Source: Spongiibacter thalassae
Lineage (GTDB): Bacteria > Pseudomonadota > Gammaproteobacteria > Pseudomonadales > Spongiibacteraceae
Assembly (NCBI RefSeq): GCF_012272835.1
Contig: NZ_JAAWWK010000008.1
Location: forward strand, 103,500-127,499
Direction of reading: 5' to 3'
Length of the DNA: 24,000 nt
The notes beneath the pieces were generated by a model that made no database searches, had not been told where the DNA came from, and saw only the letters and a program-made list of their open reading frames with translations. Of the stretch, positions 3,722 to 14,712 are shown in pieces (position 1 is the stretch's first letter; each line of letters opens with the position of its first letter). A program made the position numbers and the translations under genes.

Positions 3722-4378
3722 TTACTTTTTTCCGGCGCTTTGTTGTATTGCCAGTGCGCCGCGAATAATCATCTTGACCATGGTGGTTGCTTCGTCGATA
3801 AGTTGGGCGCGGTCCTCCGGAGCCAGGCGGTCTGCCGAGGCGCCAAGGGAAAATACCAGCCGTGAAATCGCCTTTGCGACCAGTTCGGGTTTGTGCATTT
3901 GAACGCCGTCGCGCTCACCCCGTCGTACCAGCTCGTCACAAAGCTCTTGCTCGAAGTAGGTCAGTTCGCGCTCTACTGCCTGCCGAAAGGCCGCCGAACC
4001 CAGCGACATCTCGCGCAGCAGTATCTGCAGGTAGCGACTGTCGTCATCCAGGGCTTCCATAAACACTTCGATCGAAGTGCGTACGCCTCCCTGGGTGTCT
4101 TTCAAACGCTGCCTCGCCTCGCGAATCATGCCCCGCAGTCCTCGTCCCGCTTGATCTATCAGAGCAACCGCCAACTCGTCTACATCACGGAAATGCCGGT
4201 AAAAACTATTGGGTGCGATATCGGCTGCCCGCGCTATCTCCCTCAGGCTGAGGCTGGAAACACTGCGATTGCCGTCGAGAAGGCTCACGGCGGCCTGCAT
4301 CAACTCATGCTCTGTAATAGGGGCTTTACGGCTCGACTTGCTGCCATCGCCTTCTTTTCGTTTGCGCGTCAGGGGCAT
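3722..4378 (-). CDS. desT: TetR-family repressor of the FabR/DesT type
   Basis: [37 protein letters not shown] closely matches the E. coli FabR HTH region ([30 protein letters not shown]). The gene is divergent from an oxidoreductase plus desaturase pair, as in Pseudomonas desT-desCB. The start is placed at ATG 4378 (MPLTRKRK). The longer track ORF to 4495 reads through the operator repeats. Confidence 0.85.
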   Translation of the reverse strand: [218 protein letters not shown]

Positions 4379-4446
4379 GAATACGGGTATCCGGCTGGGA
4401 AATAAGAGGCAAACTACCTGAATGGAGGAGTGCTGTAAATACGTAT

Positions 4447-4486
4447 GTATATACAAGTGTATTGACGGTCGTATATACAAGTGTAT
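4447..4486. promoter_or_regulatory. Duplicated palindromic operator candidate in the desT / desC-like intergenic region, overlapping a candidate promoter
   Basis: GTATATACAAGTGTAT occurs twice (4447-4462 and 4471-4486, 24-bp period). Each copy contains the palindrome TATACA-AG-TGTAT(A). TTGACG (4462-4467) plus TATATA/TATAGT (4484-4491) form a plausible plus-strand promoter overlapped by the second copy. Confidence 0.5.
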
Positions 4487-4521
4487 ATAGTGCATCGAAA
4501 TCCCATCTATGGATACCTGCC

Positions 4522-5223
4522 ATGAGCAACGCGATGCCCGCAGACAGAAAGTATTTCCCGAGGCTGCTGAATGCAGTGGTCAACCCCGATCAGTTTGATT
4601 TCTGGGCCCGTCAGTTCGGCAGCGTGGCCGCCTGGCAGCGCTGCTTTGCACGTGTTGCTGCGGTGAAAAAGGAGGAGGGTGGTGTCGTGGTGACCCTGCG
4701 GCCCAATCGCCACTTTCGGGAGTTTGGCGATACCGGCCGCTGCGCTGTAAGCGTCGAAATTGATGGGCGGAAACGATCCGAGGCGTACGCGGCCGAGATC
4801 AAGCCAGATAGGCGAGAGCTTGATATCCGGGTTGTGGCAAATACAAACAATGCTGTCAGCCGATATTTACGGAATACCTTGAAAGTGGGTGATGTGGTTG
4901 AGCTTTCCGAGGGCGCTGCTACCGCGTCCGAACTTTGTCATGGTGAACAGGAGAATGCTGCTGACGATACCGCTGTGGTGATCTTGCGCGCCAGTGATCG
5001 ACGCGTGCGCATCCCACGAAATATTTCCATTCTTGAGGCCCTTGAAGCCGAGGGGATTACGCCTAAATTTGGCTGCCGTCGCGGAGTTTGTAATCGGTGC
5101 AGCTGCATCCGACTAGGCGGAACAACCGCAGATATTGCCTCGGGGTCGGAAAGCGATGTGTCGGGGCAGCCTGTTAGGATTTGCGTCAGTCACGCTGTGG
5201 GCGACATTGAACTCGATCTATAA
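4522..5223 (+). CDS. Ferredoxin-reductase-like beta-barrel plus plant-type 2Fe-2S ferredoxin domain protein (DesC-like partner of the desaturase)
   Basis: The C-terminus GCRRGVCNRCSC...RICVS shows the Cx4Cx2C...C pattern of 2Fe-2S ferredoxins. The gene lies immediately upstream of the desaturase. The start is placed at ATG 4522 because the track start at 4462 is a TTG inside the operator region. Confidence 0.75.
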   Translation: MSNAMPADRKYFPRLLNAVVNPDQFDFWARQFGSVAAWQRCFARVAAVKKEEGGVVVTLRPNRHFREFGDTGRCAVSVEIDGRKRSEAYAAEIKPDRRELDIRVVANTNNAVSRYLRNTLKVGDVVELSEGAATASELCHGEQENAADDTAVVILRASDRRVRIPRNISILEALEAEGITPKFGCRRGVCNRCSCIRLGGTTADIASGSESDVSGQPVRICVSHAVGDIELDL

Positions 5224-5263
5224 ATAATCCCGCTTGAATTCTATCCACCCAGAGAAATTTCCC

Positions 5264-6355
5264 ATGACCTCATTATCTAACAAGTCTCTTAATGCGCAAG
5301 AGCTGGCCGATTTCGGCGCTGAACTTGATGCGCTCAAGCTCAAACACCTGAATGAAGTGGGTGCTGTCGATGCCCGCTATATCAAACGCATCGTAGCCGC
5401 TGTGCGATATAGCGAAGCACTGGGGCGCGGCTTCCTGTTTCTCAGCTTTATTCCGCCCTTTTGGTTGTTGGGTACATTACTGCTGGCTCTGTCCAAAATT
5501 CTGGAGAATATGGAACTGGGCCATAACGTCATGCATGGCCAGTATGACTTTATGAACGAGCCTTCCCTGCGTGGCGAAAGCTATGAGTGGGACATTGTGG
5601 GGACCAGCGAAAACTGGCGCCATAGTCACAATTACCGCCACCATACCTACACGAATATCAAAGGTCTCGACGACGATGTGGGCTACGGCATGCTGCGTCT
5701 TTTTCCGGAGCAGCGTTGGTCGCCCCTATATATACCCCAGGCTTTATACGCCTTGCTGTTGGCATTGTTATTCCAGTGGGGCGTGGCCGTGCAGGAGCTT
5801 CAATTGGGTAAAGTCGTTAAAGGTCGCAAGTCCAGGGCTCAGCTGAAAGAGGAATTGAAGCCCATGTTAAAAAAGGTGAATCGACAGCTGTTGAAGGATT
5901 ATCTGATATTTCCGCTGTTATCCGGCCCACTGTTTTTCAGTGTGATGGCGGGTAATTTTGTCGCCAATATCCTGCGCAATCTGTGGACCTTCATGATTAT
6001 CTTCTGTGGTCATTTTACCGCCGACGCAGAAGTCTTTCCCAAGTCAGTGATAAAGGATGAACTGCCGGGGCATTGGTACCTGAGACAGTTGCGCGGCTCA
6101 TCGAATCTGACTGGCGGCAAGTGGTTTCACATCCTCTCCGGTAACCTGAGCCACCAAATTGAACACCACCTTTTTCCGACAGTACCGGCATGGCGATATG
6201 CGCAAATGAGCACAGAGGTTCAGGCCATCTGCGAGCGATACGGCCAGAACTACAACTCCGGCTCGCTGGTGAGTCAGTTTGGGCAGGTGGTGTGGCGTAT
6301 TCTTCGGCACGCCTTTCCCTCGTCTCCCGAAGGTGCTGTGCAGGTGGGTAGATAG
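5264..6355 (+). CDS. Membrane fatty-acid (acyl-CoA/acyl-lipid) desaturase, DesB-like
   Basis: Three histidine boxes are present: HNVMH, HSHNYRHH and HQIEHH. There are also hydrophobic segments. The ATG at 5264 is preferred over the TTG at 5234. Confidence 0.9.
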   Translation: MTSLSNKSLNAQELADFGAELDALKLKHLNEVGAVDARYIKRIVAAVRYSEALGRGFLFLSFIPPFWLLGTLLLALSKILENMELGHNVMHGQYDFMNEPSLRGESYEWDIVGTSENWRHSHNYRHHTYTNIKGLDDDVGYGMLRLFPEQRWSPLYIPQALYALLLALLFQWGVAVQELQLGKVVKGRKSRAQLKEELKPMLKKVNRQLLKDYLIFPLLSGPLFFSVMAGNFVANILRNLWTFMIIFCGHFTADAEVFPKSVIKDELPGHWYLRQLRGSSNLTGGKWFHILSGNLSHQIEHHLFPTVPAWRYAQMSTEVQAICERYGQNYNSGSLVSQFGQVVWRILRHAFPSSPEGAVQVGR

Positions 6356-6599
6356 CAGAAGTTCGTTTGGGCGCGGCGATGTTTGAATAAGTCGCGCATC
6401 GGGGTCTCTCCCAAAAGCAGAGTGGGCCTTGATTGCGCGGGCATCTTGGCTTGGTGACTCGCTATATTTTTGTAATGGCGTCTTCGGGGGCTGTGCATCT
6501 TGATGGAAATGTTCTTGTGGCGGGCGTAAAGTTTCAGAAGCACTGTGAAAAAACTAGAGAGGCAATGGCATAACCGAGGGCTTTCAAAACAAAATGGAA

Positions 6600-6632
6600 C
6601 CAAGCGGGCAATTTAATGGTGGATCGACAAGG
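6600..6632 (+). repeat. Left copy of an imperfect direct repeat bracketing the AT-rich island
   Basis: CCAAGCGGGCAATTTAATGGTGGATCGACAAGG aligns with 12061-12092 CCAAGCGGCCACTTTATGGGTGAATCGACAGG, with about 28 matches over about 34 aligned columns by hand. It also overlaps a hairpin, GGTGGATCGAC-aaggcgt-GTCGATTCACC (6619-6647). Confidence 0.5.
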
Positions 6633-6801
6633 CGTGTCGATTCACCCATTACATGACCAGGTATTTCACCCATAAGATGGCCAAAGGAGCGAATTTCAGG
6701 TCGCATTTTGGGCTATTTGTAACGGCATTTGACTTGTAAGTTGACCCTATAATGACCGGAGAATACGCAAGGCGGACGGTCACCGAGGAGAAATTCTACA
6801 G

Positions 6802-6871
6802 CCTCAACGCCGCGCTCTGCGGCAAATTTGAAGCGTAGCTGAGAATTTGTCCGACAGCAGCGCATTTATAT
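6802..6871 (-). repeat. attC-like site A (last in the array, 70 bp)
   Basis: The minus strand reads ATATAAA-T-GCGCTGCTGTCGG...CCGCAGAGCGC-GGC-GTTGAGG. The first arm has 2 extra bases relative to its partner. The site starts 4 nt after the TGA stop at 6878-6876. Its central core CGCTTCAAATTTGCC is shared with sites B and D. Confidence 0.6.
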
Positions 6872-6875
6872 GGTG

Positions 6876-7805
6876 TCAGTATTGGCACTCCCATCCTCTT
6901 ACCAGCCCTGTCTCATCAAATTCGACGAGCAATTCTTTCGACAAATTAGCTCTCCGTCTTGCCTCTCTCGATATCAAATCGAAATCATTAGAAGTTCTAA
7001 ATGCGCGAACACTACTTCCTCTATACTCTTTCCACTTATTATCAACAAACTTGATAGTTCTAAATTCAATATCGTTGGCGTTTAGCTTTACGCCATTCCT
7101 AACAAAGTCGTCATCATTTTCTAGTAGTTTATGAATTGCTTTTGAGAGTAACGCATCAAATGAAATTGCTATAGCGAACGCCTCTTTCACAAATTGTTTA
7201 ATATCTGTCGGCGGTGTATCTGCACCAGCAACATGGGCCGCCTTGTGCCTTCTCAGCGATGCGCTCTTAAATATTTCAGCCAACGATAATGTTGCAGTCA
7301 ACCCTAGATTAGATGAAATTTGGGACATTTGGCGCCACGGGTCTTCAACGTTAAAAGACTTCAGAATATCTCCTATTATTGTATTGCTTATATTGGCTTG
7401 AGAATGAGCAAATGTATGGCTAGACAATTCATAGTTTGGAGTTGCTGTGGAGGAAATTTTAAGAGCATGATCTTGAATATAAGCGGGCCTATCGTCTTTA
7501 TCCAACAGGCTCAACTGGTAATTCAATGCTGAAAGCACCTCGTACGTTGCCGCTCTTTGTAGTTTCTCTGGCAGCTCGGCAAATGCGATGGTACACCTGC
7601 TGACTTCTTCCATAGCTTCTGAAGATCGCTTTTTAATATAATCTTCTAAAGATGCAAAGCTCACTACCGCAAGTCCGTTTCTGAGCATTCTCGCAATTGA
7701 ATTATGCTCTCTCTCAGTTAATGCTCTGTTCTGAACAGCATCTGTTTCAATTGAAGCGTCAAGGCACCTGATACGCTCAATAAAATCTGTTTTTGCTGAG
7801 GGCAT
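6876..7805 (-). CDS. Protein with an Rx4-6H (HEPN-like) motif, putative RNase partner of the DUF262 protein
   Basis: The motif LRRHKAAH is at aa 191-198 of the track ORF (7233-7253, AGA AGG CAC AAG GCG GCC CAT on the minus strand). ATG 7805 is preceded by GAGG and lies 1 nt after the DUF262 stop (TGAtATG). The track alternative is TTG at 7826. The gene is AT-rich like the rest of the island. Confidence 0.8.
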   Translation of the reverse strand: MPSAKTDFIERIRCLDASIETDAVQNRALTEREHNSIARMLRNGLAVVSFASLEDYIKKRSSEAMEEVSRCTIAFAELPEKLQRAATYEVLSALNYQLSLLDKDDRPAYIQDHALKISSTATPNYELSSHTFAHSQANISNTIIGDILKSFNVEDPWRQMSQISSNLGLTATLSLAEIFKSASLRRHKAAHVAGADTPPTDIKQFVKEAFAIAISFDALLSKAIHKLLENDDDFVRNGVKLNANDIEFRTIKFVDNKWKEYRGSSVRAFRTSNDFDLISREARRRANLSKELLVEFDETGLVRGWECQY

Positions 7806-7806
7806 A

Positions 7807-8865
7807 TCAAACCTCAACAGATTCAAGCATATTTTTTAGCTTTAATACTCGATTTCTAATCGCTAGTGTGTCGCCTGTAGCTTGTGTCACAGCTTTATGA
7901 AACTCAGGATCATTTTCATATAAATCTCTAGTTGCAGATAGAACGGCATCTTGCGCGCCTTCTAACTCCTGAACCCTACCCGAATCTAAAAGAGAAACTG
8001 CTACCATTTGGGCATCAAAGAGTGGTGCAATAAGTTGTTCTCTCCAGCCATTATTCAATGGCTTTTGGAACGAGAAATCCCCCCAAAGCTTCTGGCAACG
8101 TTCTATCGAATATAGAAAAATCTCCCTCAGCTCATTGACTTCTGTGTGCTGGTTTTCTGCCATAAAGTCATCCATTGCCACGGATATCTTTTTACCAAAA
8201 TTCTCCCATCTACTACGAATTGTGAAGAACCTTAGAACTAGCTCTAGATCATCCATACTCCTATAAGCGGCTGATTTATTTGAAGTTATCTTTAACTTTT
8301 TTCTTAAAAACTCATTTTCGGACAACTCAAAAAGCAAGTCATTTAATGGTCCTGCGAACGCAACATTTCTTACCTCTTGAGCTTTCAAATTCTCGCCACC
8401 AGTATTAAGTCTCAAGAAAACCTCATATTTTAATTCTGGATCAGATTGTTTGAGCAGCGTTATTACACGCATAAATGGTCTAATAGAAAGCGCCCTCTTT
8501 AATTGAGAAGGCAGCTGCTCAAATGTAAATCCGTTTAGCTCTTGAACTTCTTTCAAATCCTTCAACTTGAATTTTCCAGATAGAAACTCGTAAATGGCTG
8601 TTATTCTTTGTTTGCCATCGATAACCGTATAAGTGCCATATTCATCTTCTGAGAGATAGACAGGTGGGACGGGTATATTTAGGAGAAATGACTCAATTAA
8701 TGCGGACTGTTTTTCGACGTGCCAGCGATCCCTTCTTTGATAATGGGGAGTTATATCTATTGACTCTAACTTAACCATATCCGCTATTGCCGAAAGTGAG
8801 AAATCAGATTGTTGAGTAACGAGGCTTTCCTGTGCTCTGGCGAATTTATCTAGTATTTCTTTCAT
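7807..8865 (-). CDS. DUF262 (ParB/sulfiredoxin-fold NTPase-like) domain protein with no DUF1524 nuclease domain
   Basis: DUF262 hallmarks are present: ITPHYQRRDRW, LIESFLLNIPVPPVYL, VIDGKQRITAI (DGKQR at 8605-8619) and FLRLNTGGENLKAQEVRN. The 352-aa ORF starts at ATG 8865. Confidence 0.9.
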   Translation of the reverse strand: MKEILDKFARAQESLVTQQSDFSLSAIADMVKLESIDITPHYQRRDRWHVEKQSALIESFLLNIPVPPVYLSEDEYGTYTVIDGKQRITAIYEFLSGKFKLKDLKEVQELNGFTFEQLPSQLKRALSIRPFMRVITLLKQSDPELKYEVFLRLNTGGENLKAQEVRNVAFAGPLNDLLFELSENEFLRKKLKITSNKSAAYRSMDDLELVLRFFTIRSRWENFGKKISVAMDDFMAENQHTEVNELREIFLYSIERCQKLWGDFSFQKPLNNGWREQLIAPLFDAQMVAVSLLDSGRVQELEGAQDAVLSATRDLYENDPEFHKAVTQATGDTLAIRNRVLKLKNMLESVEV

Positions 8866-8911
8866 TTCATATCCAAATTTTCAATCTGACTTGTTGATAT
8901 CAACCATATCC

Positions 8912-8980
8912 ATATAACGCCCAGCTCAGCGGGCAATTGAAGCGTAGCGTAAATTGATCCGCTGCAGCTGTTTGTTAGGC
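8912..8980 (-). repeat. attC-like site B (69 bp)
   Basis: The minus strand reads GCCTAAC-AAA-CAGCTGCAGCGG...CCGCTGAGCTG-GGC-GTTATAT. The first box abuts the TAG stop (8983-8981) of the upstream ORF. There is one extra G in the first arm. Confidence 0.7.
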
Positions 8981-9931
8981 CTACATTTCATATAGGCTCA
9001 GTCCCATTGCACTGCCAATTACATACCAAATATCTTGCCACTTTACATTTACTAAGTCAGTTCCAACATATCTGGTTTCGTCATTACCCCTTCGTAAAAG
9101 TTTGCCATTAGCGATATAGCTGAAATCATGCCCACCAAAATTTTCCACCGTCTTTTCTTTCGGTAAAACTGTCAGTAAAGGCTCTACGTAAACGGGGTCA
9201 TCTGCGACAACTAGAAATTGATCAAAGAGATGCGCAAAACTGACCATATGCTCACCTAACTCCAAGCTATACCATTCTTCGGACATTGTATTAATTCGTA
9301 CTTCGCCTTTTTCATATTCAAAGCATTGGCCATCTAAATGCTGCACCTCATGCTCATCCTCTGGGAGATGGAATATAAAAGCAGTTACGAAAGATTTTTC
9401 ATGCAGCCATTCAATCGCATGCGGGATGACGTTTTCAATAGGCTCGAAGGACAGCTCTCGACCAGGGTGTAATGTCTTGAAGAAGCGAAGTGCTTTAGCG
9501 GATTCCTGATAGAAAAACCTATAGTCTATATACAGGGCACGATAATTCGCTGGTTCCCGCTGCATCCTTTCCTTATATATTGTTCTTACCTCATCTACAC
9601 ACGCTTTGGCATTTCGGTTTATCTCTCGACCAGTAAACCGAATTACAGTATAGCCAGCCCGCGACAAATACCTTTGCCTGACTGCATCTTTCTCTAGTTG
9701 TTCGGGAGTAGAGTGGTAAGCATGTCCATCAAGCTCGATTATCAGACGTGCATCTCTTAAGATAAAATCAACTCTATAACGACCATGCTTTTCTTTATCA
9801 CCAAACCATTGCTCACTTTCTATTGCGTTGGCAAGATCATTTAGCTCTTTACTAAATTCTGCCTCAATATGAGAAGGCCCTCGATCTCTATACCAGCCTG
9901 GAGCATCTTTTGGCTGTCCTGGGTACTTCAT
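8981..9931 (-). CDS. DUF559/Vsr-like endonuclease-fold domain fused to an unrecognised C-terminal domain of about 190 aa
   Basis: The N-terminal region YRVDFILRDARLIIELDGHAYHSTPEQLEKDAVRQRYLSRAGYTVIRFTGREI matches the DUF559 pattern (D-F...IE-DG--H...D--R--L---G--V-RF). ATG 9931 is preceded by AAGGAG. I do not recognise residues from about 120 to 316. Confidence 0.85.
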   Translation of the reverse strand: MKYPGQPKDAPGWYRDRGPSHIEAEFSKELNDLANAIESEQWFGDKEKHGRYRVDFILRDARLIIELDGHAYHSTPEQLEKDAVRQRYLSRAGYTVIRFTGREINRNAKACVDEVRTIYKERMQREPANYRALYIDYRFFYQESAKALRFFKTLHPGRELSFEPIENVIPHAIEWLHEKSFVTAFIFHLPEDEHEVQHLDGQCFEYEKGEVRINTMSEEWYSLELGEHMVSFAHLFDQFLVVADDPVYVEPLLTVLPKEKTVENFGGHDFSYIANGKLLRRGNDETRYVGTDLVNVKWQDIWYVIGSAMGLSLYEM

Positions 9932-9946
9932 AGAACTCCTTTTGCG

Positions 9947-10004
9947 GCCTAACGCTTAAAGCAGCCGCGCGCATTTATTCGTCGGTTGCCTTTACTTGTT
10001 ATGC
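9947..10004 (-). repeat. attC-like site C (short, 58 bp)
   Basis: The minus strand reads GCATAAC-AAG-TAAAGGCAACCGACG-loop-CGCGGCTGCTTTA-AGC-GTTAGGC. The arms pair over 12 bp, with 2 extra bases and 1 mismatch on the first arm. The first box and spacer encode the last residues and the stop of the upstream ORF. Confidence 0.6.
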
Positions 10005-10336
10005 AATTCTTTAGTGCGAGCTGCATCAATACTGTAAATGTTTCTGCCACTTACCTTTCCCTCTTGTACTGACAAAACTACTCGGCCCCGGTATGTGTTT
10101 GGTAGTCGGCCCCAATCTCTGACGAAGACTTGAAGTCCACTGGGTAATCGCACATAGAATGCAGGATCAGCGGCAGACTTACCGGAAGAGTGCTTGGTGT
10201 AAGAAACCACCTCGGCCTCAATAAATTTTTTTCCGCCAGTGCCGGACTCAAACTGAAAATATGTAAGCGCACCGATGGCTAGGCAAACAGCCAGAACGCC
10301 AGCGGCTAACTTGATGTTCAATTCAACTGACTGCAT
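9992..10336 (-). CDS. Small membrane-anchored protein (one N-terminal TM helix plus a beta-rich C-terminal domain)
   Basis: From ATG 10336 the product is MQSVELNIKLAAGVLAVCLAIGALTYF... (114 aa). This ATG lies inside the GTTATGC box of the preceding attC-like site. The track start at 10360 is a TTG further inside that site. No family was recognised. Confidence 0.6.
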   Translation of the reverse strand: MQSVELNIKLAAGVLAVCLAIGALTYFQFESGTGGKKFIEAEVVSYTKHSSGKSAADPAFYVRLPSGLQVFVRDWGRLPNTYRGRVVLSVQEGKVSGRNIYSIDAARTKELHNK

Positions 10337-10422
10337 AACGCCCGCAACAAGGGCGCACAAATAAGCGCAGCGTTTTGGGCGTCCCAGCGACCATCGGGAG
10401 CGAATGCTTGCGCTTGTTATGT
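10333..10422 (-). repeat. attC-like site C2 (long, 90 bp)
   Basis: The minus strand reads ACATAAC-AAG-CGCAAGCA...TGTTGCG-GGC-GTTATGC. The terminal stem is 7 bp with one extra G on the first arm. The central part is longer and pairs less clearly. Confidence 0.55.
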
Positions 10423-10438
10423 TTTATTACGTATTTCA

Positions 10439-10666
10439 TTATTTGTTTATTTTCGTTTTAGTCTTACAAATCCACCAAAAGGATATTCCTGATACTGAGA
10501 ACAACCCAACGGATACGAACCTATGCCAATCATTGAAACATACGACTCCATTATTGGTGGTGATACATTCCTGGAACCACAACCGTAGCCCAATACCAGC
10601 CAAACATATAGTAATGAGCAGAGGGAGCATTCTTTCCAACCTTGAAGCGAGGCTATCGTCACTCAT
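10439..10666 (-). CDS. Possible small two-TM membrane protein (75 aa, or 63 aa from the internal Met)
   Basis: The ORF starts at an ATG and has two hydrophobic stretches (LPLLITICLAGIGLRLWF and FVSVGLFSVSGISFWWI). Its stop lies 16 nt before attC-like site C2, which fits the cassette layout. The SD at M1 is weak, and GGAAAGA precedes M13. Overlapping ORFs exist on both strands. Confidence 0.35.
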   Translation of the reverse strand: MSDDSLASRLERMLPLLITICLAGIGLRLWFQECITTNNGVVCFNDWHRFVSVGLFSVSGISFWWICKTKTKINK

Positions 10667-10711
10667 TCTCTGACCATTTTTTCAATGCGGTTAACTTGGG
10701 TACTCGCGAAA

Positions 10712-10783
10712 ACATAACGCTCGCAACACCGGGCAATTTGGAGCGCAGCGGAAAATTGTTCCGCGTGCTTGCGCTTGTTATAA
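10712..10783 (-). repeat. attC-like site D (72 bp)
   Basis: The minus strand reads (GGCC)TTATAAC-AAG-CGCAAGCACGCGG...CCGGTGTTGCG-AGC-GTTATGT. The first arm has two extra G residues. The TAA stop of the upstream ORF lies inside the first box. Confidence 0.7.
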
Positions 10784-11584
10784 GGCCGTTGCACCGATTA
10801 ACTCGTTTTCTAGGCTTTTTAAGTTAAATACCCTCACTTCTTGAGGAAACATGAAGGTCACTGCGCTCGACTCAACCTCACGCGTAAACTGCTCAAGTGC
10901 CTCACCTTCCAAGTCGGTCGCTATTGCAAGTAGCAACGTCATTTTGTCGCCTTTAATATCTGGGAGCTCTTGAAATGTCCTTTGGATCTTAACCAATGAA
11001 GATCTGACGTTTCTAAGAGATGTGGAGTCTTTTATATACTTAACTTCAATGGCGTATACTTGGTTGCTTTTCTTACCTATTGCATCAAATAAGAATTGGG
11101 ATTTTCCCGACCTAAGCATTACTTCCTTTTCAATTTCATCAAATTCTTGTGACAGCTTGGTTATTACAAGCTCTTCCGCAAGGTAGTGAGTAGATGCTGT
11201 ACTTCTACGGATGATATTTCTATATGCCAAATCCACATTGCTAATATCTGAACCTACTGAATCCTCTACTACCTCAGATTCAGCTTCTATCTCAGAACTT
11301 AACTTCTCAAGCCTGTCGCCGGCTGTCGGCTTCCCAAAGAGCTTAAGAAAATTATCTTCATCCTGAAAATCAGAAGGAGCGTAGAGAACTTTGTGATTGA
11401 AGTTTAAGGTTAGGAAGAACAGAAAAATCAAAATCGTAGGAAATATCATCAAAAACCATACATACAAGTCCTGACTCCCTTCCTTTAAAAAGGGCAAGAC
11501 TATTGTTCCACTCACTTCTGCCAGCCCGGCAAATATAGCGATAATGGTTAGCGGATTACTTACCTTTTTAATCGTTTCGATCAT
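10778..11584 (-). CDS. Two-TM membrane protein with a C-terminal PD-(D/E)xK-like (restriction-endonuclease-fold) motif
   Basis: The N-terminal helices are LTIIAIFAGLAEVSGTIVLPF and LYVWFLMIFPTILIFLFFLTLNF, followed by an acidic linker. Then come LAEELV...FLFDAIG...YAIEVKY, with D167, E180 and K182 at 11039-11086. ATG 11584 is preceded by GGAG. Confidence 0.8.
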   Translation of the reverse strand: MIETIKKVSNPLTIIAIFAGLAEVSGTIVLPFLKEGSQDLYVWFLMIFPTILIFLFFLTLNFNHKVLYAPSDFQDEDNFLKLFGKPTAGDRLEKLSSEIEAESEVVEDSVGSDISNVDLAYRNIIRRSTASTHYLAEELVITKLSQEFDEIEKEVMLRSGKSQFLFDAIGKKSNQVYAIEVKYIKDSTSLRNVRSSLVKIQRTFQELPDIKGDKMTLLLAIATDLEGEALEQFTREVESSAVTFMFPQEVRVFNLKSLENELIGATAL

Positions 11585-11604
11585 GGGCGCTCCAATTTCG
11601 CCTT

Positions 11605-11615
11605 GGCCTTATAAC
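11605..11615 (-). repeat. Orphan GTTRRRY-type core box at the head of the array (junction where attI or a further attC would be expected)
   Basis: The minus strand reads GTTATAAGGCC, the exact reverse complement of GGCCTTATAAC at the start of site D (10787-10777). The sequence upstream (11616 onward) does not resemble the other sites. Confidence 0.5.
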
Positions 11616-12038
11616 ATTATTATTATGAAGACCGGGGCCTTATATCACTGAGGCTCCTTATCTCGGGGGCTAAAATTGCAATGGAACCAGGAATCCTACA
11701 GATTCCATGGGCTTGGATGAATTTCGTCGAGTTAGTGATTGATGGTAGCAAGACTAGTTCCCTCTATCTGCTTTAGCTCCTTTTCCCCTGATCATATACC
11801 CACTCATATAAAAATCAATTAGTTAGCACTGGCAAAAAGGTGATAGTGAGCGTGTGGCTCCTGAAAAAGGGGAAAGTGGCGATTTGGGGGCAGCTTTTTT
11901 TTAAGCTGAGTGTCTGTTTTCTCCGAAGGGGGCGCTGGTGACTGTCCGCTTCTGACGAGCAGCCGACCTTCCTTGCGCCACTTGGAAGTGATGGGACGGG
12001 ATTATCAACAGGGTTTAGTGAGTGTCATCCCCCGATTA

Positions 12039-12060
12039 TGGGGTAGAGTCTGGGGTAGAG
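12039..12060 (+). repeat. Tandem 10-mer TGGGGTAGAG-tc-TGGGGTAGAG
   Basis: Two exact copies lie at 12039-12048 and 12051-12060, directly abutting the right-hand bracket repeat. Confidence 0.6.
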
Positions 12061-12092
12061 CCAAGCGGCCACTTTATGGGTGAATCGACAGG
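12061..12092 (+). repeat. Right copy of the imperfect direct repeat bracketing the island
   Basis: CCAAGCGGCCACTTTATGGGTGAATCGACAGG aligns with 6600-6632. It lies 22 nt from the 3' end of tRNA-Leu. Confidence 0.5.
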
Positions 12093-12114
12093 AGTTGGAA
12101 CTTTTGGGAAGAAA

Positions 12115-12201
12115 TGGTGCCCAGGAGAGGACTTGAACCTCCACGGCCGTGAAGCCACTAGCACCTGAAGCTAGCGTGTCTACCAATTTCACCACCTGGG
12201 C
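12115..12201 (-). tRNA. tRNA-Leu (anticodon CAG), class II with long variable arm, CCA encoded
   Basis: The minus strand reads GCCCAGGTGGTGAAATTGGTAGACACGCTAGCTTCAGGTGCTAGTGGCTTCACGGCCGTGGAGGTTCAAGTCCTCTCCTGGGCACCA. The acceptor stem is GCCCAGG/CCTGGGC. The anticodon stem is CTAGC/GCTAG with loop TTCAGGT. The T arm is GAGG-TTCAAGT-CCTC. Confidence 0.95.
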
Positions 12202-12239: not shown

Positions 12240-12268
12240 AATTTACTGATTAACCGCTTTTTTGTCAA
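12240..12268 (-). promoter_or_regulatory. Candidate sigma70 promoter for tRNA-Leu
   Basis: On the minus strand there is a perfect TTGACA (12268-12263), a 17-nt spacer and TAAATT (12245-12240). A GC-rich discriminator GCGCGCC follows, as is typical of stable-RNA promoters. Confidence 0.5.
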
Positions 12269-12327
12269 CGCTTGAGTTACACTATAGGCAAATTTTTTTT
12301 TGCATTGAGCACAGGAACTACTACTGC

Positions 12328-14712
12328 ATGGCTAAAAGCCGCAAAGAACACAATGATCCCCACGCCGCCCGCGAAGCGGAACGCTACGACAATCCGGTGC
12401 CCAGCCGGGAGTACATTCTTGAGAAATTAGGTGATGCCGAGCAGGGGATGTCTGCGTCGGCACTGCGCAAGTTGCTGGGTATAGAAGGTGAAGACGAGCA
12501 GGAGGGCCTGCGCCGACGGTTGAAGGCCATGCTGCGCGACGGTCAGCTGATCGAGGGGCGGCGCGGCCGCTTGCAGGCGCCAGTGGCGGGCGAGGCGGTT
12601 GTCGGTCGTGTGCAGGGCCATCGCGAGGGCTATGGTTTCGTTATTGTCGATGGCGATGACGATGTGTATTTGCACAATCGGCAGATGCAGCAGGTGTTTG
12701 ATGGTGACGTGGTGTCGGTAGAGGTGACCGGCAGCGATCAGCGCGGCCGTCGCGAAGGCATTATTGTCGAGGTGGTGGAGCGCAATACCCAGCAGCTGGT
12801 AGGCAAGCTGGTAGATCATCGCGGTCGTGCGATGGTGGTGCCGGAAAATACCCGTATTCAAAACTGGATCGCCCTGGAAGACGGGGATTTCCAGGGGGCG
12901 TCTAACGGTGACTACGTGATGGTGGAAATCACCCGTCAGCCGGGGATGCGCCAGCAGGCCCGGGGGCGGATAGTCGAGTTGCTGGGCGATCGGCAGACGG
13001 TGGGTGTGGCAACGGAGCTGGCCCTGCGCAGTCATGAGATACCCTTCGACTGGCCCGAGGAAGTTGAGGAGGAGGCGCGAAAGTTCGGTTCCGAGCCTCT
13101 GGAAAAAGACAAGAAACACCGGGCTGACCTGCGCGATTTGCCGCTGGTGACCATCGACGGTGAGGATGCCCGGGATTTTGATGACGCGGTCTACGCCGAA
13201 AAGAAAAAGTCGGGTGGTTGGCGTCTTTGGGTGGCTATTGCCGATGTCTCCCACTATGTGAAAATTGGTTCAGCGCTGGATGCCGAGGCTCATCGTCGGG
13301 CAACGTCGGTGTATTTTCCCGACCGGGTCGTGCCCATGCTGCCAGAGGCATTGTCCAACGGCTTGTGCTCGCTCAAGCCCGAGGTTGATCGCCTGTGTAT
13401 GGTGTGTGAAATGACCATCAGCGCCAGCGGTCGGCTGAGTGGTTACACCTTCTACGAAGCCGTCATGCGCTCTCATGCGCGTCTTACCTATAACGAGGTA
13501 GGCGCCATGCTGAGGGTGAAAGGCGCTGATCCAGAGAAGGACAGCGGTCGCTTCCACCAGTTTATTCCGCAGTTGCAAGAGTTGCACAATCTGTATCGCG
13601 CCCTGCGGGAAGCCCGCAGTGAACGGGGTGCCATCGACTTTGAAACCGTGGAGACTCGCATTGTCTTCAGTGATGAGCGTCGGATCGAAGCGATTGTGCC
13701 GGTGCATCGCCACGACGCTCACCGAATGATTGAGGAGTGTATGCTGATCGCCAATGTGGCGACGGCAAAAACACTGGAAAAGTCGGGGCTGGATGCACTG
13801 TATCGCGTGCATAATGGCCCGTCGGACCAAAAGCTCGGCAATCTGCGGGAGTTTCTCGGTGAAATTGGTCTGGGTTTGAAGGGTGGAGAGAAACCGTCTC
13901 CCAAAGATTATCAGGCCTTGCTCTCAACGATTGGTGATCGGCCTGATGGCCAGATGATTCAAACCATGCTGCTGCGCTCACTGAGTCAGGCGGTTTACCA
14001 GCCCGATAACGAAGGCCATTTTGGCCTGAACTACACCGGATACACCCACTTTACTTCGCCGATTCGGCGCTACCCCGATCTGTTGGTGCATCGGGCCTTG
14101 CGCTATTTGATGCGCAACGGTGGCGGCGACGCCGAAAGGCATTTCAGCATCGAGCCGAGTGCACCGGCTTTGCCGCGCAAGAAGATCTATCCCTATGATC
14201 TGGAAGCCCTGCTGACCCTGGGTGCCCACTGCTCGATGGCCGAGCGGCGCGCGGATGATGCCAGTCGTGATGTCATGGCATTTTTGAAGTGCGAGTTCCT
14301 GCAGGATCACGTCGGTAACGAATTCGAGGGCGTGATTGCTGCGGTCACCGGGTTTGGCTTGTTTGTTGAACTGCAGGATTTGTATATCGAAGGTCTGGTG
14401 CATATTTCGGCGCTGCCGCAGGACTACTACCAGTTTGATCAGGCCCACCAGCGGTTGATCGGTGAGCGCACACGTCGGGTTTATCAGTTGGGAGACAGCC
14501 TGCGGGTGCAGGTCATGGGCGTCGATCTGGACGAGCGCAAGATCGATCTCGCTGTGGTGGCTGGCGCGAATACGCGGCGAAATAAACCCTCGGTGCGCGA
14601 GGCTCTTGCCAAGGGCGAAGTGCCCGGTGCGAAGGCCAAGAAGGGGGCAGCCAAGCTGCCGCCGGGCAAGAAGGGTCCTGGTGGTGCCAATAAAAAACGT
14701 CGCCGTCGCTAG
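12328..14712 (+). CDS. rnr: Ribonuclease R
   Basis: The ORF has the RNB-domain pattern (LPLVTIDGEDARDFDDAVY, SVYFPDRVVPMLPE, FTSPIRRYPDLLVHR), a C-terminal S1 domain and a Lys/Arg-rich tail. The start is placed at ATG 12328 (MAKSRKEH). The conserved neighbour rlmB follows. Confidence 0.95.
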   Translation: MAKSRKEHNDPHAAREAERYDNPVPSREYILEKLGDAEQGMSASALRKLLGIEGEDEQEGLRRRLKAMLRDGQLIEGRRGRLQAPVAGEAVVGRVQGHREGYGFVIVDGDDDVYLHNRQMQQVFDGDVVSVEVTGSDQRGRREGIIVEVVERNTQQLVGKLVDHRGRAMVVPENTRIQNWIALEDGDFQGASNGDYVMVEITRQPGMRQQARGRIVELLGDRQTVGVATELALRSHEIPFDWPEEVEEEARKFGSEPLEKDKKHRADLRDLPLVTIDGEDARDFDDAVYAEKKKSGGWRLWVAIADVSHYVKIGSALDAEAHRRATSVYFPDRVVPMLPEALSNGLCSLKPEVDRLCMVCEMTISASGRLSGYTFYEAVMRSHARLTYNEVGAMLRVKGADPEKDSGRFHQFIPQLQELHNLYRALREARSERGAIDFETVETRIVFSDERRIEAIVPVHRHDAHRMIEECMLIANVATAKTLEKSGLDALYRVHNGPSDQKLGNLREFLGEIGLGLKGGEKPSPKDYQALLSTIGDRPDGQMIQTMLLRSLSQAVYQPDNEGHFGLNYTGYTHFTSPIRRYPDLLVHRALRYLMRNGGGDAERHFSIEPSAPALPRKKIYPYDLEALLTLGAHCSMAERRADDASRDVMAFLKCEFLQDHVGNEFEGVIAAVTGFGLFVELQDLYIEGLVHISALPQDYYQFDQAHQRLIGERTRRVYQLGDSLRVQVMGVDLDERKIDLAVVAGANTRRNKPSVREALAKGEVPGAKAKKGAAKLPPGKKGPGGANKKRRRR

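Follow-up and report, generated by a model that had tools for sequence, protein, structure and literature searches.

A 24,000-nucleotide stretch of the Spongiibacter thalassae KMU-166 genome (contig NZ_JAAWWK010000008.1, positions 103,500 to 127,499; hereafter the window) contains two adjacent genes, A and B, which are both encoded on the minus strand and lie exactly within positions 6876-8865. NCBI lists their products as "DUF262 domain-containing protein" and "HEPN / RiboL-PSP-HEPN domain-containing protein", respectively. The genes are part of a low-GC island (approximately 6.5-12 kb of the window) with a GC content of 39-46% compared to about 56% in the flanks, and all open reading frames (ORFs) examined in this island share the minus-strand orientation. 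The pair is probably an anti-phage system of the DUF262(ParB-like)-RiboL-PSP-HEPN type, for which PD-T4-2 is the prototype, carried as a two-gene module on an integron cassette mobile among marine Gammaproteobacteria.

Products of the coupled genes A and B

Gene A matched the Pfam family PF03235 (GmrSD_N) with an E-value of 3.5e-26. The DUF262 hallmarks quoted in an original prediction, which had been made from the DNA sequence of the window, were all recovered in gene A (motifs I to III in Table 1). In 25 gene A homologues the residues P40, Y42, Q43, R44, R45, R47 and W48 of motif I, all five residues of motif II, and R152, L153, N154, T155, G156, G157 and L160 of motif III were invariant. 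Motif II is the counterpart of DGQQR, the nucleoside triphosphate (NTP) hydrolysis motif of GmrSD-like proteins, whose role is known from the literature on BrxU and HEC-06. The absence of a DUF1524 nuclease domain, likewise predicted, was confirmed in so far as Pfam yielded no match to PF07510 at E<=0.1, and a protein of 352 amino acids leaves no room for an HNH domain.

Among the PADLOC models, gene A was matched best by NsnA of the Menshen system (1.2e-73, residues 15-349). The model PD-T4-2_A reached 2.4e-38 (residues 25-330), and SspE, HEC-05 and HEC-06 gave either no match or weak matches confined to the N-terminal motifs. The AlphaFold2 model of gene A had a predicted local distance difference test (pLDDT) score of 82. 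Its top match in the PDB was BrxU (7p9k), a type IV enzyme of the GmrSD family, followed by the ParB domains 6sdk, 7bnk and PadC, which bind cytidine triphosphate, 6sdk being a ParB-CDP structure; these structural matches had probabilities of 0.75-0.97 and weak E-values. Sequence and profile searches against the PDB sequences returned nothing for gene A or gene B. NsnA combines a ParB-DUF262 domain with a helical DNA-binding domain, "ParBDB", which is also present in DndB, GmrSD and SspE (PMC12065111). The C-terminal half of gene A corresponds to this ParBDB domain, and gene A encodes a ParB/DUF262 NTPase-fold protein with an NsnA-type helical DNA-binding half and no nuclease domain.

Gene B starts one nucleotide after the stop codon of gene A and is preceded by a GAGG, in agreement with the original prediction; a sequence reading places this GAGG 6 nt before the ATG of gene B. 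A mechanical ORF list offers an alternative gene B of 316 amino acids that starts from a TTG at position 7826. The assignment to the HEPN proteins was corroborated by a Pfam match to PF18735 (HEPN_RiboL-PSP) over residues 27-220, with 45.8 bits at a curated cut-off of 28.4. PF18735 was matched by 30 of 31 gene B homologues, and PF18737 (MAE_28990/MAE_18760-like HEPN) by nine of the 31 as well; the family name MAE_28990/MAE_18760, which the original prediction had mentioned as possibly relevant to DUF262 neighbours, thus proved relevant. The AlphaFold2 model of gene B (pLDDT 91.2) found an MAE_28990/MAE_18760-like HEPN protein as top match in BFVD (probability 1.00, template modelling score 0.53). 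Gene B encodes a HEPN protein of the RiboL-PSP / MAE_28990 clade.

The bare pattern Rx4-6H occurs four times in gene B, compared to about 1.6 occurrences expected from its composition, and therefore provides no evidence for a HEPN domain. At this chance level the pattern alone is uninformative, and conservation decides. In the 31 gene B homologues (43-94% identity), R185, R186, A189 and A190 were invariant and H187 and H191 nearly so. A profile of the gene B family was searched against 1.84 billion cluster representatives (clusters at 50% identity) and retrieved 533 relatives at E<=1e-3, of which 241 were at E<=1e-30; nearly all were full-length proteins of 300-315 amino acids. Residues were counted in the best 150 of these 533 relatives. 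R186 and A190 were present in 149 of 149, H191 in 148 of 149, and position 187 was occupied by H or N in all 149, whereas R185 was kept in only 90. The near-invariance of R186 and H191 identifies R186-x4-H191, the sole conserved one among the four Rx4-6H matches, as the predicted catalytic dyad. An R-x4-6-H motif kept across homologues within an α-helical domain, by which HEPN proteins are recognized, is present in gene B. The coding positions of the RRHKAAH stretch are 7253..7233 and those of the preceding leucine 7256..7254. The dyad originally proposed, R192/H198, was counted from the TTG at 7826 and corresponds to R185/H191 when counted from the ATG. Its histidine was upheld by the family-wide counts but its arginine was not; an R192A substitution would target the wrong residue, as the invariant arginine is R193 in that numbering (R186).

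The helical HEPN region is followed by a C-terminal α/β domain with W305 in 130 of 130 sequences and with R249, W258, E260 and A268 conserved. Almost all of the 150 representatives covered the profile positions up to about 305. Searches of the PDB and BFVD gave no structural match for this domain.

Table 1. Features of the gene A/B cassette and its borders in the window
Feature	Position	Strand	Description
Integron cassette with genes A and B	6808..8917	-	2110 bp, from upstream R' G|TTATAT to own R' G|TTGAGG
Gene A	7807..8865	-	352 amino acids, ATG start; ParB-like DUF262 NTPase domain at residues ~28-168, helical C-terminal half ~170-352
DUF262 motif I, PHYQRRDRW	8722..8748	-	Residues 40-48
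DUF262 motif II, DGKQR	8605..8619	-	Residues 83-87
DUF262 motif III, FLRLNTGGENL	8386..8418	-	Residues 150-160
A/B junction	7803..7815	-	GAGG 7815..7812, gene A stop TGA 7809..7807, T 7806, gene B ATG 7805..7803
Gene B	6876..7805	-	309 amino acids; helical HEPN region at residues 1-235, α/β C-terminal domain 240-309
Predicted HEPN catalytic motif, R186-H-K-A-A-H191 (R-x4-H)	7233..7250	-	From conservation and hhalign to PD-T4-2B
Gene B C-terminal α/β domain	6879..7088	-	Residues 240-309, β-β-β-α-β-β, pLDDT >90 in the model
Cassette's own attC	6802..6871	-	Imperfect palindrome, ends with R' GTTGAGG; palindrome I13 at 6814-6839
attC of the preceding DUF559 cassette	8912..8980	-	R'' GCCTAAC to R' GTTATAT; gives the upstream recombination point

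Co-inheritance and mobility of the gene pair

The gene B alignment was searched in one genome per species and yielded 17 loci in Alpha-, Beta- and Gammaproteobacteria, Acidobacteriota, Symbiobacteriaceae, Bacteroidia and Hydrogenedentes, to which four further loci were added. A gene A homologue was located directly upstream on the same strand in all 21 loci found through gene B. A metagenome search with the gene A alignment retrieved 80 loci with gene A at 46-93% identity; gene B followed directly downstream in 74 of 74 assessable loci, and the other six ended less than 100 nt after gene A. Hence A directly precedes B in 95 of 95 assessable loci from several phyla, and the lack of co-conservation named as an objection to the original prediction was not observed. 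In 91 related loci the distance between the stop of A and the start of B varied between -8 and +21 nt, 2 nt being the most frequent value, and the A family is conserved at about 60% identity compared to 45-50% for B. The two genes form an obligate, strictly co-inherited unit.

The unit is also found outside of integrons, in defence-type islands and on plasmids. A homologous pair in Vibrio cholerae (GCA_024219075.1, 4941-6933), with a gene B of about 60% identity, is flanked by a cluster with a Lamassu-domain gene (LmuB_C) and by a VspR regulator plus helicase. This setting is a defence island, not an integron array.

Four copies of the Spongiibacter locus with approximately 90% nucleotide identity were detected, in Salinibius halmophilus, Gilvimarinus chinensis, an uncultured Neptuniibacter and a metagenome contig. 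The identity to all four was confined to window positions 8918-8922..6794-6866. On the upstream side the five sequences were unrelated up to GTTATATGG and nearly identical from there on. On the downstream side the window and the three genome copies shared a 70-nt imperfect palindrome and diverged just after GCGCGGCGTT; the attC of the metagenome copy is a different one. These homology breaks are the G|TT crossover points of attC sites, and the unit is therefore a 2110-bp cassette with both genes. The spacing within the repeat family, also 2110 bp, agrees with these boundaries, and the single two-gene cassette of about 2.1 kb that had been postulated for this locus was confirmed, with support from the comparison with the four independent copies. 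Since the identity of about 90% stops exactly at the attC recombination points, the alignments indicate that the pair moves as a single integron cassette. The attC sites were identified by eye from their R''/R' boxes and the repeat families D3, D9, D16 and D20, not with a covariance model. The corresponding 90%-identity protein cluster also contains Pseudidiomarina and Alcanivorax. In Salinibius an intI-type integrase is located at a distance of two cassettes from this one, and the array includes a PhdYeFM/ParE pair near the integron.

In the window, the region 6500-12100 is made up of approximately five cassettes bounded by attC sites. All of them are on the minus strand, and besides genes A and B they contain ORFs of 268, 75, 122 and 316 (DUF559) amino acids. 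This island looks like an attC cluster lacking an integrase within the window. Its upstream end adjoins a tRNA-Leu(CAG) gene (12115-12201, minus strand), which is followed by the gene for RNase R (12262-14712), surroundings that are unusual for an integron array. A 33-nt direct repeat with the sequence GAACCAAGCGGGCAATTTAATGGTGGATCGACA flanks the entire island (6597-6629 and 12058-12090, 82% identical), and related copies containing ATGGGTGAA are present in inverted orientation at 6641-6682. These sequences could be degenerate attC remnants or att sites of the island.

The neighbouring cassette (8981-9931, minus strand) encodes the 316-amino-acid protein, residues 47-117 of which match the DUF559 / MTES_1575 Vsr-like endonuclease fold (E=1e-14 and 5e-12), while the C-terminal 200 amino acids are unannotated. 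Its 90% cluster occurs on 11 contigs, and it is possibly a stand-alone nuclease or defence cassette. The 268-amino-acid cassette protein (10778-11584, minus strand) belongs to no Pfam family and gave weak matches to PD-(D/E)xK-type models of PADLOC (REase_II, E=0.003; CARF_PDDEXK, E=0.005); its cluster has nine mostly metagenomic members.

Relation to PD-T4-2 and alternative explanations

PD-T4-2 originates from E. coli ECOR65, where it was described as "DUF262, HEPN" and marked as validated; its deletion in the native strain restored plaquing of T4 (Vassallo et al. 2022; PMC9519451). HHpred assigned PD-T4-2A to PF03235 and PD-T4-2B to PF18735 (97.8%), then to PF18737 (96.9%). Table S7 of the same study contains a PD-T4-2B H127A construct, built to test the HEPN domain, and according to the authors protection required the conserved residues that had been mutated (PMC9519451). 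Reviews class the system as uncharacterised. The original prediction had treated the status of the pair as open, a view superseded by the description of a ParB-RiboL-PSP-HEPN operon in 2013 (PMC3710099) and the validation of PD-T4-2 in 2022 (PMC9519451). The A+B pair is real and has the architecture of PD-T4-2. As this pairing is known and validated, the pair is a divergent relative and not a new kind of system.

For comparison, the genuine PD-T4-2 locus was recovered from a complete E. coli genome by means of the deletion primer of Vassallo et al. In strain 2009C-3133 (3968-5603) it consists of a DUF262 protein of 364 amino acids, followed 4 nt later by a HEPN protein of 167 amino acids, and it is located in a P4-like satellite (psu, ogr/delta, icd-like genes, integrase) beside ssrA. 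The locus matched the PADLOC models PD-T4-2_A (2.1e-162) and PD-T4-2_B (7.9e-64), and PD-T4-2B matched all three B models. Of 5426 complete E. coli genomes, 17 carried an exact 50-nt match to the gene start.

Both systems are two-gene operons in which a DUF262/ParB-like gene without DUF1524 is directly followed by a PF18735 HEPN gene, and both are carried by mobile elements. They share the R-x4-H motif, RNAAAH in PD-T4-2B and RHKAAH in gene B, and hhalign set the RRHKAAH of the gene B family on the RNAAAH of PD-T4-2B (P-R122-N-A-A-A-H127). H191, the equivalent of the PD-T4-2B residue H127, is the histidine kept in 148 of 149 representatives. The systems differ in the length of the HEPN protein (309 amino acids in gene B, 167 in PD-T4-2B), in the larger HEPN region of gene B and in its conserved C-terminal α/β domain, which is absent from PD-T4-2B. 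The carrier is an integron cassette here and a P4-like satellite next to ssrA in the case of PD-T4-2, and the host is a marine Spongiibacter.

Further DUF262 + PF18735 pairs have HEPN partners of 180 amino acids (IncX1 plasmids of E. coli) and 261 amino acids (a Klebsiella aerogenes plasmid). As with the Spongiibacter pair, NsnA outscored PD-T4-2_A on the A proteins and the PD-T4-2_B models did not match the B proteins, which indicates that these B models are narrow. The NsnA model matched the DUF262 proteins of DUF262-HEPN pairs with 1e-58 to 1e-75 and surpassed PD-T4-2_A for every A protein tested except the genuine PD-T4-2A. The DUF262-HEPN class is accordingly a broad one with rapid divergence among the HEPN partners, and PD-T4-2 proper and the 307-amino-acid form described here are separate branches of it.

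Several observations weigh against a PD-T4-2-type defence module on a mobile cassette. Gene A is only a distant relative of the genuine PD-T4-2A (28% identity over 233 residues, E=1e-25) and scores higher on the Menshen protein NsnA than on PD-T4-2_A. Even with the threshold relaxed to E<=10, PADLOC found no match between its three PD-T4-2_B models and gene B, and the hhalign comparison of the gene B family with PD-T4-2B was marginal (E=0.018, probability 2.5%), so that only the Pfam profile and the motif link the two proteins. The same comparison gave E=0.15 for the 180-amino-acid IncX1 protein and E=6e-4 for the 261-amino-acid K. aerogenes protein; all of these used single HEPN partner sequences and are a weak test. 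A Foldseek search of the PDB with the gene B model found nothing at E<0.08 and no solved HEPN structure, its top entries being ROQ domains and unrelated helical proteins. A literature search returned no paper on the mechanism, trigger or RNA target of PD-T4-2. With regard to mobility, the R'' box of the cassette's own attC has a 2-nt deletion at window positions 6861-6871, reading ATATA--AATGCGCTGC compared to ATATAACAAGGCGCTGC in the other copies of the five-copy alignment, or ATATA--AATG compared to ATATAACAAGG in three other genera, and this deletion may have immobilised the cassette in Spongiibacter. No tyrosine recombinase or intI was present among the scanned ORFs of the 24-kb window, which is a part of a contig of 200 kb. 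A scan of the cassette for σ70 promoters and terminators detected none ahead of gene A, and shuffled sequence yielded more sites than the cassette did; the cassette is promoter-poor.

The split, RNA-targeting variant of the GmrSD logic that had been proposed for the pair is a reasonable mechanistic analogy, conjectural here as well as for PD-T4-2. By analogy to GmrSD/BrxU/SspE, to PD-T4-2 and to HEPN tRNases that are activated by DNA, of which DARNA is an example, A and B may form a complex whose stoichiometry would be fixed by translational coupling. A would recognize phage DNA, possibly modified, through its DUF262 and ParBDB-like domains and would bind or hydrolyse NTP, a step which could then release or activate a dimeric B. 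B would cut RNA (tRNA or mRNA) and stop translation and phage replication, with the probable loss of the infected cell. The C-terminal α/β domain of B would be the likeliest contact or regulatory surface.

The 'long' 307-amino-acid HEPN subfamily has an invariant C-terminal α/β domain and a DUF262 partner of its own, and it might constitute a sister system of PD-T4-2 with a distinct mechanism, which we consider conceivable but doubtful. In that case, the extra domain of B could, for instance, serve as a second sensor or as the switch through which the RNase is licensed by the ParB-like NTPase, and the spread of the pair on an integron cassette would make it a defence that is common among marine and environmental bacteria and missed by current PADLOC models.

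The coupling of an upstream partner to a downstream HEPN gene with a 1-nt gap resembles the order of an antitoxin and its toxin, and HEPN proteins are common toxins of toxin-antitoxin modules. Toxin-antitoxin cassettes stabilise chromosomal integron arrays against loss. B might accordingly be a HEPN RNase toxin and A its antitoxin, an addiction module that stabilises the cassette array and for which phage defence would be secondary. The location in an integron array, and the PhdYeFM/ParE pair in the Salinibius array, are in line with this proposal, as is a 2013 survey in which NTPase partners were suggested as antitoxins of a related HEPN family (MAE_18760 with ParA/Soj; PMC3710099). Nevertheless, A is a 352-amino-acid two-domain NTPase/DNA-binding protein with invariant motifs and exceeds what the neutralisation of a toxin needs, PD-T4-2, the prototype, came to light as a phage defence and was validated as such in the strain from which it originates, and the pair is not restricted to integrons but also occurs in the defence-type islands and on the plasmids mentioned above. 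An addiction module is thus an unlikely explanation, even though the two roles are not mutually exclusive.

It is similarly improbable that A itself is the effector and attacks (modified) phage DNA as a ParB-like nuclease or nickase, like a type IV restriction enzyme, with B as accessory regulator or back-up abortive arm. This proposal draws on the 2013 survey, which treats ParB/DUF262 proteins as DNases of restriction-modification-like systems with embedded HEPN genes (PMC3710099), on the type IV enzyme BrxU as the closest solved structure to A, and on the higher conservation of the A family relative to B. In the characterised enzymes GmrSD, BrxU and SspE, however, the cleaving domain is DUF1524, which gene A lacks, and DUF262 senses features of the DNA and switches on the attached nuclease by its NTPase activity. 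DUF262 has been described as sensor and NTPase in SspE and GmrSD (PMC12065111). The H127A construct of PD-T4-2B and the reported requirement for the mutated conserved residues in protection (PMC9519451) also speak for a role of the HEPN protein, and the near-invariance of the B dyad argues for B as an active enzyme.

That A is the remainder of a degenerate Menshen system (NsnABC) that has lost NsnB and NsnC, next to an unrelated gene B, is hardly credible: the full-length match to NsnA is the best that PADLOC gives for A, but the genuine PD-T4-2A and the DUF262 proteins of the E. coli and Klebsiella plasmids match NsnA as well (1.6e-58 to 2.2e-75), so that this model is simply broad, and B follows A in every assessable case while neither the cassette nor the 95 related loci contain an ABC-ATPase or NsnC-like gene. 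A Menshen identity was rejected on gene content, the next gene being that of the DUF559 protein in a separate cassette.

The anti-phage module of the PD-T4-2 type thus remains the preferred interpretation. The conceptual gain is little, as DUF262 + RiboL-PSP HEPN is a recognized and experimentally validated defence architecture. The pair does represent a coherent, strictly co-inherited subfamily of several hundred clusters, whose members are annotated just as "DUF262" and "HEPN domain-containing". Since the PD-T4-2_B models miss B and A scores higher on NsnA, annotation pipelines under-call this subfamily or could mislabel it. With its defined residues and its separable extra domain, the long form also lends itself to probing how a ParB-like NTPase may control an RNase.

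Comparison with known systems

The ParB-associated RiboL-PSP-HEPN / MAE_28990 operons of the HEPN survey ('Ribo L-PSP-HEPN ... operon with ParB'; Anantharaman et al. 2013; PMC3710099) are the gene-neighbourhood class to which the A+B pair belongs. The survey was purely computational and at the superfamily level, and it did not delineate the 307-amino-acid subfamily or the C-terminal domain. The pair described here also differs in that no DNA methylase accompanies it.

GmrSD, BrxU and SspE resemble gene A in the N-terminal DUF262 domain with the motifs QR..W, DG(Q/K)QR and FxxLNxGG, and BrxU was the top structural match. Each of these enzymes is one polypeptide chain in which a DUF1524 HNH DNase is fused to DUF262, and their target is DNA, whereas the A+B pair lacks DUF1524 and has a separate predicted RNase partner. 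In DARNA (PD-T7-3), a HEPN tRNase is activated by single-stranded DNA.

With Menshen (NsnABC; Millman 2022; Li et al. 2025), the pair shares the NsnA architecture of gene A, a ParB-DUF262 domain plus a helical ParBDB-like part, and the proposed logic of a DUF262 sensor upstream of an RNase effector. Unlike Menshen, the cassette has neither the ABC-ATPase transducer NsnB nor the inPIN-BECR protein NsnC; instead, the HEPN gene directly follows the sensor.

Phage-defence integron cassettes (BRiCs; mobile and sedentary integrons) are an already published concept; a keyword search of two papers on integron cassettes revealed no mention of a DUF262 cassette. In contrast to those cassettes, the attC cluster of the window is without an integrase. 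Like them, the A+B cassette is a compact attC-bounded module common to different genera, and it would provide a clean case of a two-gene defence system that is shared as one integron cassette across at least five genera with exact recombination boundaries.

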